Of a stretch of DNA of 64,000 bases, positions 10,751 to 57,159 are shown piece by piece. The number at the start of each line of letters is the position of its first letter. Position 1 is the stretch's first letter. Position numbers and translations under genes: made by a program. The notes under the pieces are model-generated. The model saw only the letters and a program-made list of their open reading frames with translations. It was not told the origin of the DNA and searched no databases. The stretch lies in the UHGV virus genome UHGV-1378817, one strand, 5' to 3'. The stretch is from a virus.

Positions 10751-10827
10751 TGGTCTCCACGGAGTGATTCGAACACTCGACCTCCTGATCCCAAATCAGG
10801 CGCTCTACCAAGCTGAGCTACGCGGAG
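10751..10827 (-). tRNA. tRNA-Pro (anticodon UGG)
   Basis: Cloverleaf read by hand: 7-bp acceptor, D arm GCTC/GAGC, anticodon arm CCTGA-TTTGGGA-TCAGG, T loop TTCGAAT, encoded CCA. Confidence 0.8.
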
Positions 10828-10838
10828 TATTTATTATT

Positions 10839-10913
10839 TGGTGGCCCTGGGTGGAATTGAACCACCGTCTGGCGATTATGAGTCGCTTGCTTGAACCTTC
10901 CAGCTACAGGGCC
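10839..10913 (-). tRNA. tRNA-Met or Ile2 (anticodon CAU)
   Basis: Acceptor GGCCCTG/CAGGGCC, anticodon arm GCGA-CTCATAA-TCGC, T loop TTCAATT, encoded CCA. Confidence 0.7.
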
Positions 10914-10914
10914 A

Positions 10915-10990
10915 TGGTGCTGATAGCAGGACTCGAACCTGCAACCTATTGATTACAAATCAATTGCACTACCAATTGTGCTACATCAGC
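10915..10990 (-). tRNA. tRNA-Thr (anticodon UGU)
   Basis: Acceptor GCTGATG, D arm GCAC/GTGC, anticodon arm ATTGA-TTTGTAA-TCAAT, T loop TTCGAGT, CCA. Confidence 0.75.
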
Positions 10991-10995
10991 AAAAA

Positions 10996-11094
10996 GGTGC
11001 TAGGTGATGGAATCGAACCACCTATGTATTCAACGACTACCTCGTCTATTTTCAGGATTAAAAATCCTCGCCCTTGCCAAAGGGCTTACCTAGC
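10996..11094 (-). tRNA. atypical long tRNA-like element (~99 nt; anticodon loop reads UUU with 4-bp stem; long extra arm)
   Basis: Acceptor GCTAGGT/ACCTAGC and canonical T arm GGTGG-TTCGATT-CCATC are clear; anticodon arm and a 30-nt variable region are non-canonical; 3' end ACC not CCA. Confidence 0.35.
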
Positions 11095-11192
11095 TCAGTA
11101 TGTTGACCATGTTGCTAGTCGGCGATGACGACTGTAACATTTGATAATCCGGTTCTGCTTCCGGCTTTCGCTTAATTACAAGGTCAACAATA

Positions 11193-11283
11193 TGGCTGAG
11201 GGTAATGGAATCGAACCATCATCGAGTCATCCTCAACGGGACGGTTTTCAAGACCGCTTGAGCACCATTGCTCCCTACCCTCA
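11193..11283 (-). tRNA. tRNA-Ser (anticodon UGA), type II
   Basis: Acceptor TGAGGGT/ACCCTCA, 3-bp D stem, anticodon arm GCGGT-CTTGAAA-ACCGT, long variable arm, T loop TTCGATT, CCA. Confidence 0.75.
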
Positions 11284-11397
11284 TTTATAAACAATACTGA
11301 TAATGACACTGATTTTCGAGCAGTTAGTGACTAGTATAAACGACGATAAATATCAATGCCATTATCTGTATGATTTATGCATTTAAAACTATAAATT

Positions 11398-11484
11398 TGG
11401 TGGGGAGTGGTGGAGTCGAACCACCCGAGTCGCAATGACAATAGATTTACAGTCTACACCGCTACCTCTACGGGATAACTCCCC
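11398..11484 (-). tRNA. tRNA-Tyr (anticodon GUA), type II
   Basis: Acceptor GGGGAGT/ACTCCCC, anticodon arm GTAGA-CTGTAAA-TCTAT, variable arm, T loop TTCGACT, CCA. Confidence 0.75.
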
Positions 11485-11488
11485 AATT

Positions 11489-11563
11489 TGGCACCCCGTA
11501 CTGGACTCGAACCAGTGTCAACGGCTTAGAAGGCCGCTGCTTTATCCACTAAGCTAACAGGGC
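11489..11563 (-). tRNA. tRNA-Arg (anticodon UCU)
   Basis: Acceptor GCCCTGT/ACGGGGT (two G-U pairs), D arm GCTT/AAGC, anticodon arm GCGGC-CTTCTAA-GCCGT, T arm ACTGG-TTCGAGT-CCAGT, CCA. Confidence 0.7.
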
Positions 11564-13810: not shown

Positions 13811-13947
13811 CCATAGTAAGTAATAAATTTAAAACATGGTACTTAGGATCTAGTATATTCTACATAAGTTAAGTATATGTACTTAGTACCATAAGTACTA
13901 GATCTTTTATTTTTTATTATTTAGTTATTTTAGTTATATTCTTTATG

Positions 13948-14028
13948 TGTCCGTATCACGGACAGTTAGTGTCCGTATTACGGGCAGATGTGTCCGCGTG
14001 ACGGACAGTAGTGTCCGTATCACGGACA
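13948..14028. promoter_or_regulatory. array of four 17-bp palindromic operator-like sites (TGTCCGT-N3-ACGGACA)
   Basis: Sites at 13948-13964, 13970-13986, 13991-14007, 14012-14028; 21-22 bp centre-to-centre; sites 1 and 4 identical. Confidence 0.5.
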
Positions 14029-14103
14029 GTTACTAACCTCTGTTCCATAGCGAACATAAAACATACGAATCCTTATAGTACAGATATTTAAGTTTTTACT
14101 GGT

Positions 14104-29033: not shown

Positions 29034-29620
29034 TCGGAATTGATGTAGATCTGACACTGGTAGATTCAGGAACAGCATGGTGGGAGTGGTTGGAGCGTTT
29101 GTATGGTCCAGCCAGTAAGACAGTAGCTAAACCTTCTAATGGGCTAATGTATTACGATTTGTCAAAGTATTGGCCTGATCGTCCCAAAGAAAACATCATA
29201 GGACCTTTTGATTTCTGGAGTGATCCGTTCCTCTACGACTTCCTTAAGCCTGAAGAGGGGGCTATTGAGGTTATGAAAGATTTGGTGGCTCGTGGTCACA
29301 AGCTTGCATTTATCTCGGTATGCAAGAAAGGTCACCTTGCATCTAAATCAAGGTTCTTAAAGCGTTGGACCAGTGATTTTATGGACCTGGACGATCACAC
29401 CCAGGGCCACGGCTTCTACGCCACACATTTCAAAGGGAATGTGGCTGTAGATGTTATAATTGACGACAGGCATGAATACCTGAACCAATTCGCTTCACGA
29501 CCTGAAGTTATTAAAATCCTAAAAGATACGCCTTATGAGCAATTCGAGGAGTTAAAGGTCAGTGTTGACTATACCGCTAATAGCTGGTATAAAATAGGAA
29601 AATTTTTAGAAGGTATTTGA
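29027..29620 (+). CDS. HAD-superfamily 5'(3')-deoxyribonucleotidase-like hydrolase
   Basis: Motif I GIDVDLTLVD (DxD), later IIDD. Confidence 0.55.
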   Translation: MLIGIDVDLTLVDSGTAWWEWLERLYGPASKTVAKPSNGLMYYDLSKYWPDRPKENIIGPFDFWSDPFLYDFLKPEEGAIEVMKDLVARGHKLAFISVCKKGHLASKSRFLKRWTSDFMDLDDHTQGHGFYATHFKGNVAVDVIIDDRHEYLNQFASRPEVIKILKDTPYEQFEELKVSVDYTANSWYKIGKFLEGI

Positions 29621-52376: not shown

Positions 52377-52531
52377 CAAAATATCAAATTTAAGACACCT
52401 AGGACGCTCTGTGGCGTCCTTTTCTTTATCTGGTGCACGATTGCATACCTTGGACAGGTAATCTCATTATAGAGCGCTTTAGAAAGAATTTGACTGTTTT
52501 CCTAAACCACCAACATCTTGAGGTATCATTT

Positions 52532-52753
52532 ATGAAAATTGTTCTATACGACGATAACGATATTGCTCTCAGTACTGTATATTTTGAAGATGATGATCTG
52601 CCAGATTTTCTACGTGTCTCCACATTTGCTGCAGAATACGGTGTGAGCCGTCAGGCAATGCATAAGTACCGAGAGTATCAGAATTGCTCATGGGCTGAGA
52701 CCTTTATGCACTTTATCCAACGTAAGCAGGCTCTGGACCGCAAAAAGCTTTAA
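52532..52753 (+). CDS. hypothetical protein
   Basis: ATG 52532 with GAGGT SD (track start is far upstream). Confidence 0.4.
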   Translation: MKIVLYDDNDIALSTVYFEDDDLPDFLRVSTFAAEYGVSRQAMHKYREYQNCSWAETFMHFIQRKQALDRKKL

Positions 52754-52853
52754 GTGTATATACTTTTTATTTCGAGCGTAGCGAGAACGCACGTCCGTTT
52801 TGACCCAAATCACCATACGCTCGGATTTTAACCAAACCCTCGCGGCGTTTCTG

Positions 52854-52882
52854 TTGACACATTACCGCTCTCGTGATAGTAT
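52854..52882 (+). promoter_or_regulatory. sigma70-like promoter
   Basis: TTGACA, 17-nt spacer, TAGTAT. Confidence 0.5.
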
Positions 52883-52902
52883 CCACACATCGTTTGGAGA
52901 AT

Positions 52903-53004
52903 ATGGGATACACAATGAGAACATTGTCCGAAGTTTTAGTGGTGATCCTGATGATCATTACGTCCATAGCGGCTGTTGCCGGAATACTCACGGGTGGAAC
53001 ATGA
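52903..53004 (+). CDS. small membrane peptide (33 aa)
   Basis: MGYTMRTLSEVLVVILMIITSIAAVAGILTGGT; GGAGA SD; ATGA overlap with next ORF; below ORF-track cutoff. Confidence 0.35.
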   Translation: MGYTMRTLSEVLVVILMIITSIAAVAGILTGGT

Positions 53005-53213
53005 TCAACACGCATGCATCTGAAGAGACATCTGAAGGAGTGACCATATGTCCATTGGCTGATCCAGTGAAAGGGGAAAACTTCGATTCTGAAGATTCTC
53101 CATCTTCGCTCCAGATAGATCCTGAGGCTGATGACTTGACGTGGGGAGACATCGTAGATATCTGGTTCTCTATTATGCCTGAGCACGAAGAGTTCAGAGG
53201 TGGTAGACTATGA
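53001..53213 (+). CDS. hypothetical acidic protein
   Basis: ATG 53001 overlapping stop of the small TM ORF; the track ORF 52800-53213 begins upstream of the promoter so was trimmed. Confidence 0.35.
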   Translation: MINTHASEETSEGVTICPLADPVKGENFDSEDSPSSLQIDPEADDLTWGDIVDIWFSIMPEHEEFRGGRL

Positions 53214-53334
53214 AGCACCGAGCCCACACAGGTTCCTCATGCTAAAGCATGGCCTGAAGAGGCAAACGTGCATAATTCCCGTGCATTGGAACGTATAAAA
53301 CCCTGTTCACACTCTCATTTCCAGAGGAGATTTC

Positions 53335-53550
53335 ATGAAGATAGAAATATTTGGTGGGGCTGACAACACTCGTGGCCTGATTTACCTTGAATTTGATGAA
53401 TCATACCTGCCAGAGGTGTTAAATATAGACTCTGTTGCTGAGGCTTTGGGAGTAAACCCTAAAGAACTCCACTCTTGTGCTGAGATCGATGGTTGGGAAG
53501 AGACCATGAACATTGATTTCAGTGAAGTAGAGGACGAACCGCTGGACTGA
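53335..53550 (+). CDS. hypothetical acidic protein
   Basis: 71 aa; MKIEIFGG N-terminus; last plus-strand gene before non-coding region. Confidence 0.4.
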   Translation: MKIEIFGGADNTRGLIYLEFDESYLPEVLNIDSVAEALGVNPKELHSCAEIDGWEETMNIDFSEVEDEPLD

Positions 53551-53679
53551 CACACAATTAGCTGCCCGGCTAAAGTGCTGGAAGCGCACCTATAACACAT
53601 CTTTCAACTAAATTTCCTACCACCACAATCACTTACCTCCAACACATGACTGTTTGCTTGTTTAGTGAGCAGTCATGCC

Positions 53680-53707
53680 TTGACATTCTTGCCTATCCTG
53701 ATAAAAT
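53680..53707 (+). promoter_or_regulatory. sigma70-like promoter firing into ORF-poor region
   Basis: TTGACA, 16-nt spacer, TAAAAT; no convincing ORF downstream. Confidence 0.4.
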
Positions 53708-55021
53708 TAAGTTCTTCTCTTTTCTTTTACCGAGTAATTCGGGTTTTCTGTTCTCTTCGGTTTGAAGGGGTATGGAGATACACCTGAGTGAACAGGGTGA
53801 ACAACCGAACCATTGGCTATGGCATTAGCATGGCGAAGCGGACGGGTGACGAAAGAGGGGCCGGAGGACACCAGTCACTGCCATATGATATATGGGTGAT
53901 AACCTGAAGAGTCTGAATAAGTGTTTAAGTACCAGTCAGAGGAAAAGGTGAATGGTAGCCGAAGGGGGAGGGGGGTTTCTTGTATCTTTAATTTGTATAT
54001 TATGTATACACTTGTAAACCAATATCATCTAGATCTGTTTACCACACAAAGTGGATAGAGACAAATATTACCTATTAAACTTGAATTATTTATAGAAAAT
54101 ACCACAACACCACTTAAGTCTTTGATTTTACACACAAATCTTACAGATATTCAACCTCCATATTTAACATACCTGTAACATATTCCATACTCTACCTGCC
54201 TGATCAATTTCCCCAACTACATCCCTCATATTTCCCCTGTCTGTACTACCCTGCCCCACCGGGAGTCCCGTCATATCTGGCTTTCCAGCAAATATCACAC
54301 CCACAAATATCATGCCTGAAGAGGGTTTCATCCCATAATACCTGCCTTGCCTGAAGAGCGCTTCATACACCACGTAAATTTTTTAATTGACCTCCCCTGC
54401 CCCGCCGGAGAGGTTGGCTTTTCCCACACAGACCTGAAGAGTCAGCCAGAAATATCTGAATAGGCCCAGTTCTACCACGATTTTGACCTGACCTACAGGA
54501 GCGCTGCCAGGCGGACGAAATGGGAATACTTCTCATTCTTATAACAATTCTCAAATATCGAGGCAGTGAGGCAAATTAATAGGCCAGGCCGTTCACACAG
54601 TGGCACAACATTTGCAACCTATCTTGTGGGGGTGAATGAGAATACCTATCATTGTGAGAACCATTATCATTACGGGCAATTTAACATAATACCCATTATG
54701 CGCACCACTGGTGATACATACAGGGATTGATAACACGAGTTACAGTTTACGCATATAACAATCATATTTCTTACTATTTGTGTGGGATATAGTTAGCAGC
54801 CGATAGATTAGATATTGACCTGTGGACTTCCAACCGTCTAGACGTCTAAGCGCCCACACAACAAGGCTTATACATACATTACTGAATGTAAACAGGGCCG
54901 CAAAAATGCTACCATACCAGTTTGTAAATTTTCATGCAGCACTTGACAAAGAGGAGGAAAACTTGTCTGACACAATGTCACACAATATGACACAATAACG
55001 GCTGTTACCATTCCATATCTC

Positions 55022-55077
55022 ACTGTTTACGCATAGACTGTTTACGCCTGGATAGTTTACACCTTGACAGTTTACAC
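55022..55077. repeat. four direct iteron-like repeats with exact 15-bp periodicity (ACTGTTTACGC x2, ATAGTTTACAC, ACAGTTTACAC)
   Basis: Repeat starts at 55022, 55037, 55052, 55067; further copies of the core at 54742-54752 and 55493-55502. Confidence 0.7.
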
Positions 55078-55150
55078 AGATATGATAAGCCATGACATTC
55101 GTTTGCATGAAAACAATTAGCAAGTTAACAATTAACAAGTTAATAATATA

Positions 55151-55303
55151 TGACATAATATAAAAGCAGGGCAACTATTAGAAGATCTATAGTTGCCTTG
55201 CTTGTTATGTCATGATTAACTAAATACAAGGCAACTATGATCTGATTAATAGTTTGCAGACAAACTATCACGGGGGTGATGGTTACTGCTTTTATATTAT
55301 GTC
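55151..55303. repeat. ~150-bp element bounded by perfect 18-bp inverted repeats, containing internal GGCAACTAT palindromes
   Basis: Left arm GACATAATATAAAAGCAG (55152-55169), right arm CTGCTTTTATATTATGTC (55286-55303); inside, GGCAACTAT-N10-ATAGTTGCC. Confidence 0.6.
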
Positions 55304-55946
55304 GCGACTCCGTCGCGCCATGCCATTCGTTTGCATAGTTGCCTTATTGTTACAGATAAAATAATTGTATTGTTAATTATTTCTTATCTTTCTATTAGTC
55401 ATCTAATGATTCCGGTTAGTATAGTAACGTACAGTAAACATTAGACGACTAAATATTTCTATGTTTATGATAACCTATCGTGACAATTCCGGACTGTTTA
55501 CGAAAAATGTTGACACCTGAGCTGATTTATGTTATGCAATTTAAACGAATAATTATTTTATGCAGGTATTGACTATTCCGTTATTCTATGGTTGGAATAA
55601 ATACTTAGCAAGCTATAGAATGGTGAGCGTACGTAAATTCTGAGATTTGTCGGCTATAGTTATACTCGATTTTTCACGTAGAACACGCTTTTTGGTTTGT
55701 GTAAGTGTATGACTTATAAAGATTTTTAGTTGTTGACAAGATATTGAAGATGTGCATCAGGTTAAATTTTGTGCAATAGCTGCATTACGTGCAATTTTGG
55801 AAGGAAAACTGGTAAAAATAGCACCGATACCACACAATGAAAGGTTATGCAATAGCTATTTTATATGTATATTTGTACAGTGTGCAGGATTGATGGCTCG
55901 TCAATTATTCCACTTGCCAGGTAGGGCCGTTTATGGTAGGGGAAGA

Positions 55947-55977
55947 GCAGACAAAAAGAAAGGGGCCTAAGCCCCTT
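55947..55977 (-). terminator. intrinsic terminator closing the minus-strand gene block
   Basis: AGGGGC-ctaa-GCCCCT hairpin followed on minus strand by TCTTTTTGT, about 20 nt after stop of 55996-56415. Confidence 0.6.
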
Positions 55978-55995
55978 GATAATTCAGTTAAAAAA

Positions 55996-56415
55996 TTATA
56001 ATGATTCGTATATTTCAAAAATCCGATTTGCCAGGTCGTTACGGTAGCGGAATTTTTCCTCACGTTTGATCATCAGATCTTTAAAGCCGTATTCTTTAAG
56101 CACTTCATTAACTTTATGGCGGCATACCTTCATATTATCTTGAGCGTCACCAATAAACTTGTTGCTGTGGTGCATTGCTTTAATTTCTTCTTCCAGGACC
56201 AGGGCAACTACCCGTACCGGATCAAGCTGGTAGGCGGTAACATCGATGCGGCATTGTAGACGGCTTTTAACGTCTGCCACCGGATATACTGCAACCTCTT
56301 CCCCGTCAACATTGACAATAATTAGTTTACCATCGATTTCGAATCCTTTCGCCGCCGGACCGTGACAAAAAGCGTTATCAAAGCTATATGCCGGATTATT
56401 AGATTTAATGTTCAT
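55996..56415 (-). CDS. hypothetical protein
   Basis: 139 aa ORF with own promoter and terminator. Confidence 0.45.
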   Translation of the reverse strand: MNIKSNNPAYSFDNAFCHGPAAKGFEIDGKLIIVNVDGEEVAVYPVADVKSRLQCRIDVTAYQLDPVRVVALVLEEEIKAMHHSNKFIGDAQDNMKVCRHKVNEVLKEYGFKDLMIKREEKFRYRNDLANRIFEIYESL

Positions 56416-56464
56416 GGTGTTTTTACCTCTTAGTTAATTTTCTTACAACTTCCCTTCAAAAAAG

Positions 56465-56493
56465 AATATAGCAAAACTGCCGATCCCTGTCAA
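56465..56493 (-). promoter_or_regulatory. sigma70-like promoter (minus strand)
   Basis: On minus strand TTGACA, 17-nt spacer, TATATT; upstream of 55996-56415. Confidence 0.55.
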
Positions 56494-56559
56494 CCAAGGA
56501 TGGCATAATTTTTATGTGATCAAGGGGCTTTATTGCCCCTGACCATGTAACTTGTTGTA

Positions 56560-56823
56560 TTATTTGTTATTCATCCAGTTTTCCCAAGCTGCCTGATAAT
56601 CTGCCTCACTGCGGCGGATCTCTTCTTGCTCTTCAAGCCGGATCTCTTCTTCTAGGTACCCCAAGATATCGGCTTTTTTGGTCTGGCGTAACATCCAATC
56701 ATCTTTTTTACGGGTAAAGATCTTATATGCTTTCTCGCAAACCTCTTTTTTGCTACCTTTTTGGACTTCAAGAACTTTGTAGGCCATGTACTGAACTAGT
56801 TTGAGCTGATCAAGACGTTTCAT
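56560..56823 (-). CDS. hypothetical protein
   Basis: 87 aa charged ORF. Confidence 0.4.
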   Translation of the reverse strand: MKRLDQLKLVQYMAYKVLEVQKGSKKEVCEKAYKIFTRKKDDWMLRQTKKADILGYLEEEIRLEEQEEIRRSEADYQAAWENWMNNK

Positions 56824-56886
56824 GATGTTTACCTCTTTATGGGGTTCTGGTTTGGTGTGGGCCTTTTGGCCCGTGTCATTATCTTA

Positions 56887-57159
56887 TTACTTACGGCGGC
56901 AAAATTCAAGTGTTTTTAATTGATAATCTTCCTCAGCTTGGAGTACAACCGCCTCGATCATTTCGTTGGCATTGGTGAAGCCATACCCTTGAGCGAACTC
57001 ATCCGCGCCACCTTCGTGATCATGTTCTGCGTTCATCGCTTCCACAAAATGGAATTCAAGATTATTGAGGTAAGGGCTTGATGTTCCGTCCTCTTTTTCG
57101 ATGAGATCCCAGATAGCATTAAAACGTGATTCGACTTCTTGATTAATCCAGCTTGACAT
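56887..57159 (-). CDS. hypothetical acidic protein
   Basis: 90 aa ORF. Confidence 0.4.
   Translation of the reverse strand: MSSWINQEVESRFNAIWDLIEKEDGTSSPYLNNLEFHFVEAMNAEHDHEGGADEFAQGYGFTNANEMIEAVVLQAEEDYQLKTLEFCRRK

Follow-up and report, generated by a model that had tools for sequence, protein, structure and literature searches.

In phages T7 and T3, Dunn and Studier reportedly described in 1983 two sets of short degenerate repeats, SRL and SRR, that flank the 160-bp terminal repetition. In T7, these consist of about ten or more copies of one heptamer, arranged as tight arrays on both sides of the repeat; duplication of the T7 terminal repeat by strand-displacement synthesis has been proposed, and the coupling of replication and end formation is debated for this phage. 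Sites bound by small terminases include the R-sites of lambda cosB with their IHF site, the pacL and pacR boxes of SPP1 and the pac hexamers of P1. Typical iterons, for their part, are 17-22 bp long and form regularly spaced tandem arrays. The general principle of terminase recognition has been reviewed, and the mechanism by which direct terminal repeats (DTRs) are recognized is described as less understood (PMC13595956). Within the Vequintavirinae, the pseudo-ToxI repeats of phage phiTE act as a mimic of a type III antitoxin (PMC3475682). Here we describe a set of short repeats next to the genome ends of a vequintavirus and compare it with these systems.

The window, that is the whole 64,000-nucleotide stretch of the virus genome UHGV-1378817 that was analysed, belongs to an rV5-like E. 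coli phage of the genus Vequintavirus. Indeed, megablast and blastn searches of the region matched 122 phage records at 85-98% identity, nearly all of them Escherichia phages of this genus, and A51.2 was the closest relative. Nineteen records of the MG0656xx series, 82-94% identical to the same region, are labelled 'Campylobacter phage'; the two that were opened are flagged UNVERIFIED, and the series probably represents mislabelled or contaminant vequintaviruses. The repeats lie within a 2.4-kb ORF-free stretch (53551-55995), between a plus-strand gene block that stops at 53550 and a minus-strand block that starts at 55996-56415; an ORF scan of this stretch detected no ORF of at least 70 aa. 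Shorter frames were considered and rejected as coding, since the MPEEGFIP mini-ORF and an 18-aa ORF at 53772 lose their start codons in relatives, most relatives have lost the ATG before the second repeat copy through a 1-nt insertion, and the length of many indels is not divisible by three. In the genome paper of rV5, the 2.4-kb stretch is drawn as a grey box labelled "non-coding", without assigned function; its authors, seeking the origin by skew, found a GC/AT-skew change at this region, which by their account coincides with the switch in gene orientation (PMC3606486).

In related phages, the genome ends map inside this stretch. Gotham (MT682716.1) has an annotated 459-bp repeat_region at both ends, which maps to 54510-54967 of the window with 94% identity. 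The terminal repeat of ECP2309 (PP464953.1) is exact, measures 459 bp and agrees with that of Gotham at both boundaries, with GGCGGACG at its start and AACTTGTC at its end; both records start with GGCGGACG, and that of EcoIv14a_Aya (OX460980.1) is linearised at window position 54967. A 458-bp terminal redundancy has been reported for two vequintaviruses (Korf 2019, PMC6563267), and Klebsiella phage KPP-1, a Mydovirus of the same subfamily, was assigned a 514-bp DTR from coverage and PhageTerm (PMC9862379). The left boundary of KPP-1, GCGGTGCTA/GACGGACA (the slash marks the cut), aligns nucleotide for nucleotide with GCGCTGCCA/GGCGGACG at 54501-54517, and its right boundary, CTTGACAAGGAGAGAGAATTGTGTT/, aligns with CTTGACAAAGAGGAGGAAAACTTGTC/. 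By homology to these records, the termini of the window's own phage would be at 54510 and 54967, with the left cut between 54509 and 54510 and a 458-bp DTR (54510-54967) that is present in the window as a single copy. Since the related termini map inside the region, the window appears to be the concatemer-junction form of the genome. With the DTR so placed, the repeats are spread over the final 70-600 bp of unique DNA ahead of it, the nearest copy ending about 70 bp before the putative left cut. The packaging mode is not uniformly reported in the group, since a PhageTerm run in one paper called a vequintavirus headful/pac (PMC13211470).

Some further features of the termini were recorded along the way. 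Most relatives have a 32-50-bp insertion at 54496 that duplicates ACAGGAGnGCTGCC, the sequence preceding the left cut; it is absent from the window, A51.2, FV3, rV5 and PDX. Inside the DTR, at 54637-54669, TGAGAATAccTATCA and TGAGAACcATTATCA differ by 3 and 2 mismatches, respectively, from the Fur-box 7-1-7 motif TGATAATnATTATCA, and in phage naswa a repeat_region is annotated at this spot. GAATGAGAATAnnTATcATT occurs in the terminal repeats of three genera, the places outside the window being 2413-2440 of contig L030 and the DTR of Mt1B1_P17. Since a window-wide scan showed that such Fur-box-like matches are not rare, Fur binding is to be taken as no more than a lead.

The repeats are real and strand-biased. 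The sequence-only reading had listed four copies of CCTGAAGAG; all four exist, at positions that differ from those listed by 0-6 nt, and all are on the plus strand: copy 1 at 53903-53911, with the extended form ACCTGAAGAGTC-TCTGAATAAG at 53902-53921, copy 2 at 54315-54323, copy 3 at 54350-54358 and copy 4 at 54433-54441. The same reading had proposed a count against shuffled sequence and a comparison with related genomes as checks, and both came out in favour of the motif. In the whole window CCTGAAGAG occurs 8 times, always on the plus strand, against 0.52 expected from dinucleotide shuffles, and a 9-mer present at four copies arose in 1 of 1000 dinucleotide shuffles of the 561-nt segment 53890-54450 (P about 0.001). 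When the window was sampled in steps of 100 nt, no other stretch of this length held a 9-mer four times. Three of the other copies, at 29249, 30116 and 36749, are in-frame Pro-Glu-Glu codons in the middle of genes and are probably coding by-products. The remaining one (53253-53261, plus strand) is located in the intergenic gap 53214-53334, so that five non-coding copies are found within 1.2 kb. They are spaced by 650, 412, 35 and 83 bp, and no helical phasing is apparent from these spacings.

Several copies are embedded in longer sequences. Two degenerate plus-strand modules, at 54246-54331 and 54392-54464, share the order C-rich block, TGGCTTT(T)CC, CACAC and CCTGAAGAG. The first one, module A, comprises the C-rich block CTACCCTGCCCCACCGGGAGTCCCGT, TGGCTTTCC, two AAATATC motifs at 54290 and 54305, and copy 2 (54315-54323) with the tail GGTTTCAT. 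The second one, module B, comprises the C-rich block CTCCCCTGCCCCGCCGGAGAGG, TGGCTTTTCC, CACACA and copy 4 (54433-54441), followed by AGCCAGAAATATC-TGAATAGG. Copies 2 and 3 also form a 35-bp tandem pair, TGCCTGAAGAGsGyTTCAT, with units at 54313-54331 and 54348-54366; the second unit contains copy 3, the units share 19 of 35 nt and their copy number does not vary in 19 genomes. On the other hand, ACCTGAAGAGTC and TCTGAATArG are common to copies 1 and 4. Both C-rich blocks include the 16-mer CCCTGCCCC(A/G)CCGG, as CCCTGCCCCACCGGGAG at 54249 (module A) and CCCTGCCCCGCCGGAGAG at 54395 (module B) and nowhere else in the window. This pair had been described correctly from the sequence, but its second copy is found in just 8 of the 19 aligned genomes. 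A further recurrent element of that reading, TACCTGCC, is indeed present at 54193 and 54339; it was dropped as a feature since most relatives do not have it at these positions.

Conservation within the genus was assessed in the window and 18 aligned relatives, 19 genomes in all. All four CCTGAAGAG copies are retained in 16 of them, and each of the three exceptions loses one copy by a singleton substitution. Copy 1 is invariant, copy 3 is retained in 17 of the 19 genomes, and the intergenic copy at 53253 is retained at the homologous place in 16 of the 18 relatives. For copies 2-4, in the variable part of the flank, variation affects 3 of the 27 motif columns as compared with 34-40% of the background columns, with a permutation P of 0.03-0.07, a value at which conservation beyond background within the genus is suggestive only. 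According to the alignment, indels and duplications are also frequent in the region, examples being an insertion of 21 nt at 54393 and a duplication of 32-50 nt at 54496.

A more diverged relative was compared as well. L060, an IMG/VR contig found via the flanking 139-aa protein, is 69% identical to the window in the left flank, with many indels. In this background, all 18 positions of copies 2 and 4 and all 21 positions of three AAATATC motifs are matched, so that they stand as islands among the indels: GGAGTCCCGT, both AAATATC motifs of module A, and CAAATATCAT..GCCTGAAGAGGGyTTCAT. The AAATATC of module B is exact as well, and the GGAGTCCCGT and TCCCCTnCCCC cores are conserved in the same order. 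Copy 3, however, is lost, with 5 of 9 positions matching. The AAATATC family had escaped the sequence-only reading; each of the four lineages examined has AAATATC/AATATC-type motifs close to the left boundary.

Outside the genus, the picture varies between lineages. The KPP-1 flanks show no BLAST-detectable similarity to those of the window, yet the KPP-1 terminus region carries 3 CCTGAAG sites against 0.10 expected; two of them are on the opposite strand, inside the DTR. Its left flank carries GACCTGAAGTGTCAGCC, the top 17-mer shared with the non-coding region of the window: GACCTGAAGaGTCAGCC of module B matches it at 16 of 17 positions, and the consensus GACCTGAAG(A/T)GTCAGCC ranked first in an unbiased search for shared 17-mers, a score that was also reached in 1 of 30 shuffles. 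Among phages that share the packaging machinery, the motif is retained in 16 of the 19 vequintaviruses (all four copies), in L060 (copies 2 and 4) and, as related sites, in KPP-1, but not in Phapecoctavirus, where the flanking gene is shared at about 90% identity, the DTR is 328 bp long and CCTGAAG is absent. The Phapecoctavirus Mt1B1_P17 has, in its 285-bp left flank, three copies of TCATGGCAA plus two degenerate ones. This array was rejected as an independent left-flank example, since an 83%-identical relative keeps only a single copy; an architecture with repeats in the left flank is therefore not conserved throughout. As for the reach of these comparisons, homology search showed that the 139-aa flanking protein extends to Phapecoctavirus, whereas the 71-aa and 101-aa flanking proteins are genus-restricted and offered no route to other genera. 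A scan of IMG/VR for GACCTGAAGNGTCAGCC returned 26 matches, about the chance number by a rough estimate of the collection size, and only one of them was a vequintavirus.

The repeats have distinctive neighbours. Copy 1 is located inside an ultra-conserved block (53640-53975) that is 99-100% identical across the 19 genomes, against 80-96% in neighbouring DNA. This block contains a hairpin (53645-53677) and a near-consensus sigma-70 promoter on the plus strand (53680-53707; TTGACA, 16-nt spacer, TG-n-TAAAAT), which agrees with the consensus at 11 of 12 hexamer positions and in the TG, shows three singleton substitutions among the 19 genomes and reads toward the repeats and the DTR. A terminator-like hairpin (53730-53742) lies about 16 nt past the predicted transcript start. 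A 262-nt G-rich ORF-free stretch ends in GGGGGAGGGGGG (G5AG6, 53964-53975); this last element resembles mitochondrial CSB II. Between copy 1 and copies 2-4 lies an AT-rich block of 190 bp with 27% GC (53976-54165), so that the composition passes from 262 G-rich nt through these 190 AT-rich nt to 344 C-rich nt. The AT-rich block holds a single IHF-consensus match on the minus strand (54115-54127) and a single DnaA-box-like TTTTACACA at 54126, the two together spanning 54115-54134. The ultra-conserved block may encode an ncRNA that has escaped annotation, or act as an origin element that forms an R-loop. A known RNA family was rejected, as an Rfam search at E<=1 over 52500-57000 gave nothing, and so was a structured RNA, as neither strand of 53714-53990 gave a better fold than shuffled sequence (z = -1.05 and -0.09).

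The right flank is organized differently. A plus-strand TGACAYAAT array (54968-54997) starts exactly at the right DTR boundary and is followed by a plus-strand array of the ACTGTTTACGC type (55022-55082). Their copy numbers vary among relatives, from about 1 to 6 and from 1 to 7, respectively, and 54968-55082 is the least conserved part of the region, with 52-58% column identity. Further on, 55164-55352 contains several inverted copies of CAGGGCAACTAT / ATAGTTGCC, and a perfect inverted repeat of 18 bp is found at 55152-55169 and 55286-55303. The right flank is well conserved in this part, which may be an element that resembles an operator or forms a cruciform.

The closest counterparts of this arrangement would be T7 SRL/SRR by architectural analogy, and lambda cosB and SPP1 pac by functional analogy. 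As in T7, short repeats (7-9 bp) in the same orientation are irregularly spaced in non-coding DNA beside a short exact DTR, concatemers would be cut at fixed sites, and a promoter reads toward the junction, as phiOR does; the function is putative in both cases. In contrast to T7, the window's phage is a large myovirus, unrelated to T7, and CCTGAAGAG is present at 4-5 copies over 1.2 kb exclusively to the left of the DTR, the arrays on the right, TGACAYAAT and ACTGTTTACGC, being unrelated to it. The copies do not form a dense abutting array of about ten or more units either: the nearest one is about 70 bp away, and it is the right-flank TGACAYAAT array that abuts a DTR boundary. Both hallmarks of the T7 arrays, namely one repeat on either side of the terminal repeat and its dense packing against it, are thus missing, and we do not file the repeats in the SRL/SRR family. 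In the cosB and pac sites, likewise, a short motif is repeated several times at no more than a few hundred bp from the terminase cut, with an AT-rich or IHF-type bendable segment between copies. They differ in that they are footprinted and belong to cos or headful systems, whereas here the binding sites are putative and packaging would be of the DTR type.

The conserved 9-mer, in gene-free DNA just before the putative packaging cut, would most likely be a protein-docking signal for the processing of genome ends. Location, strand bias and island-like conservation taken together are best fitted by putative cis-acting sites of the terminus region. We therefore favour, tentatively and with somewhat less than even confidence, the reading that CCTGAAGAG, AAATATC and the C-rich blocks are cis-acting protein-binding sites of the concatemer junction, for terminus recognition or processing. 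The repeats are conserved beyond their surroundings and adjacent to the termini mapped in relatives; from this we infer that a protein binds them, which protein that would be and that packaging is the purpose. The recognition protein would be an oligomer, with the small terminase or an accessory factor of terminus processing as the most likely candidates; it would bind several sites of the same orientation and wrap the DNA, possibly assisted by a host bending protein at the AT-rich block. The bound complex would then position the nuclease for the cut at 54509/54510. The mature ends would result from a second cut at 54967/54968 and from strand-displacement synthesis that duplicates the 458-bp repeat, in the manner proposed for T7. 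The earlier suggestion of a terminase-binding or other protein-recruitment region, made from the look of the repeats, is thus supported in part, by the location about 70 bp from the cut and by the conservation of the copies beyond their surroundings; the second 16-mer copy and TACCTGCC did not hold up, being unconserved. Against a role at the termini speak the irregular spread of the 4-5 copies, copy 1 being 600 bp from the cut, the two KPP-1 sites on the opposite strand inside the DTR, the marginal significance within the genus, the 1 of 30 shuffles that equalled the KPP-1 match, the lack of the motif in Phapecoctavirus, the inconsistent reports on packaging mode and the origin-like features of the region.

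The same neighbourhood could also be read as a replication origin, in which the repeats would be sites of an initiator or an accessory protein, the 53680-53707 promoter would drive a G-rich transcript up to G5AG6 and the AT-rich block flanked by repeats would unwind. We regard this as unlikely, though deserving of attention. The nearly invariant promoter with its 11 of 12 matches plus TG, the G-rich, AT-rich and C-rich series (262, 190 and 344 nt), the position of copy 1 on one side of the AT-rich block and of copies 2-4 on the other, the IHF and TTTTACACA matches at 54115-54134 and the skew change at the region (PMC3606486) are all consistent with it. Furthermore, as in iteron origins such as lambda ori, a repeated motif is found near an AT-rich block with DnaA- and IHF-like sites and a nearby promoter, so that an adjacent AT-rich unwinding element (53976-54165, 27% GC) is indeed in place. 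However, the 9-bp core and the spacings (650 bp from the 53253 copy, then 412, 35 and 83 bp) depart from the regular tandem repeats of 17-22 bp that make up iterons, no initiator protein was identified, the single DnaA and IHF matches could be due to chance and the skew change coincides with the gene-orientation switch (PMC3606486). KPP-1, moreover, has CCTGAAG sites without a G-rich block or an obvious 190-bp AT-rich block. The promoter could alternatively mean that the motif acts as RNA: a transcript from 53680 through 53714-54509 would expose CCUGAAGAG and AAAUAUC to a protein or another RNA, for example as a decoy like the pseudo-ToxI repeats of phiTE. A strong conserved promoter facing the repeats with no ORF downstream, the presence of all copies on the strand that would be transcribed, and the repeat-based ncRNA decoy encoded by a relative of the same subfamily (PMC3475682) point in this direction. 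The phiTE locus resembles the one described here in its short direct repeats in non-coding DNA, and the period of the tandem pair, 35 nt, is nearly that of ToxI, 36 nt. On the other hand, the terminator-like hairpin lies about 16 nt past the predicted start of the transcript, there is no Rfam match at E<=1, the fold of 53714-53990 (z = -1.05) is no better than that of shuffles and two KPP-1 sites are on the other strand. The tandem pair, with two poorly matching units (19 of 35 nt) and no copy-number dynamics in the 19 genomes, does not amount to the near-identical tandem 34-45-nt repeats of a known antitoxin family, and the phiTE locus is not at an analogous position. A ToxI-like decoy, without similarity to the phiTE repeats, without an Rfam match and with its locus elsewhere, was rejected, and an action as RNA in general seems to us quite improbable.

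It is also improbable, if slightly less so, that the repeats are functionless relics of local duplication in a fast-evolving spacer whose apparent conservation stems from close kinship. The embedding of the motifs in longer duplicated modules (the 35-bp tandem pair and modules A and B), the frequent indels and duplications, the unstable conservation of the second 16-mer copy, copy 3 and TACCTGCC and a within-genus P of just 0.03-0.07 would be expected from such relics. Yet copies 2 and 4 and three AAATATC motifs persist as exact islands in the 69%-identical, indel-rich flank of L060, and the motif recurs in the terminus region of KPP-1, a different genus whose flanks are beyond BLAST detection; both observations speak against mere relics. 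Finally, the sites could serve another DNA-binding protein unrelated to ends or origins, such as a phage transcription factor that controls the convergent operons, a nucleoid or host factor, or a site-specific nickase. Two long transcription units converge at the region, the copies at 53253 and 54315 have CATAAT 9-10 nt downstream, and the KPP-1 sequence shows a promoter-like TTGACC-N17-TATTCT that overlaps the motif. Nevertheless, the five copies have no consistent promoter geometry in common, those within genes lie mid-gene as Pro-Glu-Glu codons and are not upstream elements, and no candidate regulator was identified, which leaves this explanation very unlikely.

Several of these elements could also work together. 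In a speculative extension of the terminus-recognition reading, which we hold to be very doubtful, the 1-kb left flank would serve a DTR myovirus as a composite cis element in which end formation is linked to replication. A G-rich non-coding transcript from the host-type promoter at 53680 would stop, or form an R-loop, at the CSB-II-like G5AG6 beside the AT-rich block; either event would prime the synthesis that duplicates the terminal repeat, and the CCTGAAGAG, AAATATC and C-rich sites would act as an array positioning terminase at 54509/54510. If true, DTR packaging would have its first defined recognition architecture outside the T7-like phages. That vequintaviruses have a DTR was known before; of the conserved motifs that flank it, we found no prior description in the literature searched. 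The termini are now placed inside the 2.4-kb "non-coding" region of rV5, which should help consistent annotation of genome ends, since many deposited records are linearised arbitrarily. The motifs that survive divergence, namely CCTGAAGAG, AAATATC, the C-rich blocks and the cut-site TGCyA/GrCGGAC, provide mutable targets for packaging and replication experiments.

Two observations concern other parts of the window. In an intergenic segment at 13947-14035, a palindromic unit of about 22 bp, GTGTCCGTAtcaCGGACAg, is repeated four times in tandem, with the appearance of an operator or iteron array. On the minus strand, ARAGORN reports a 99-nt tRNA-like gene with a four-base anticodon (atcc) at 10996-11094, in the middle of a seven-gene tRNA cluster (10751-11563).
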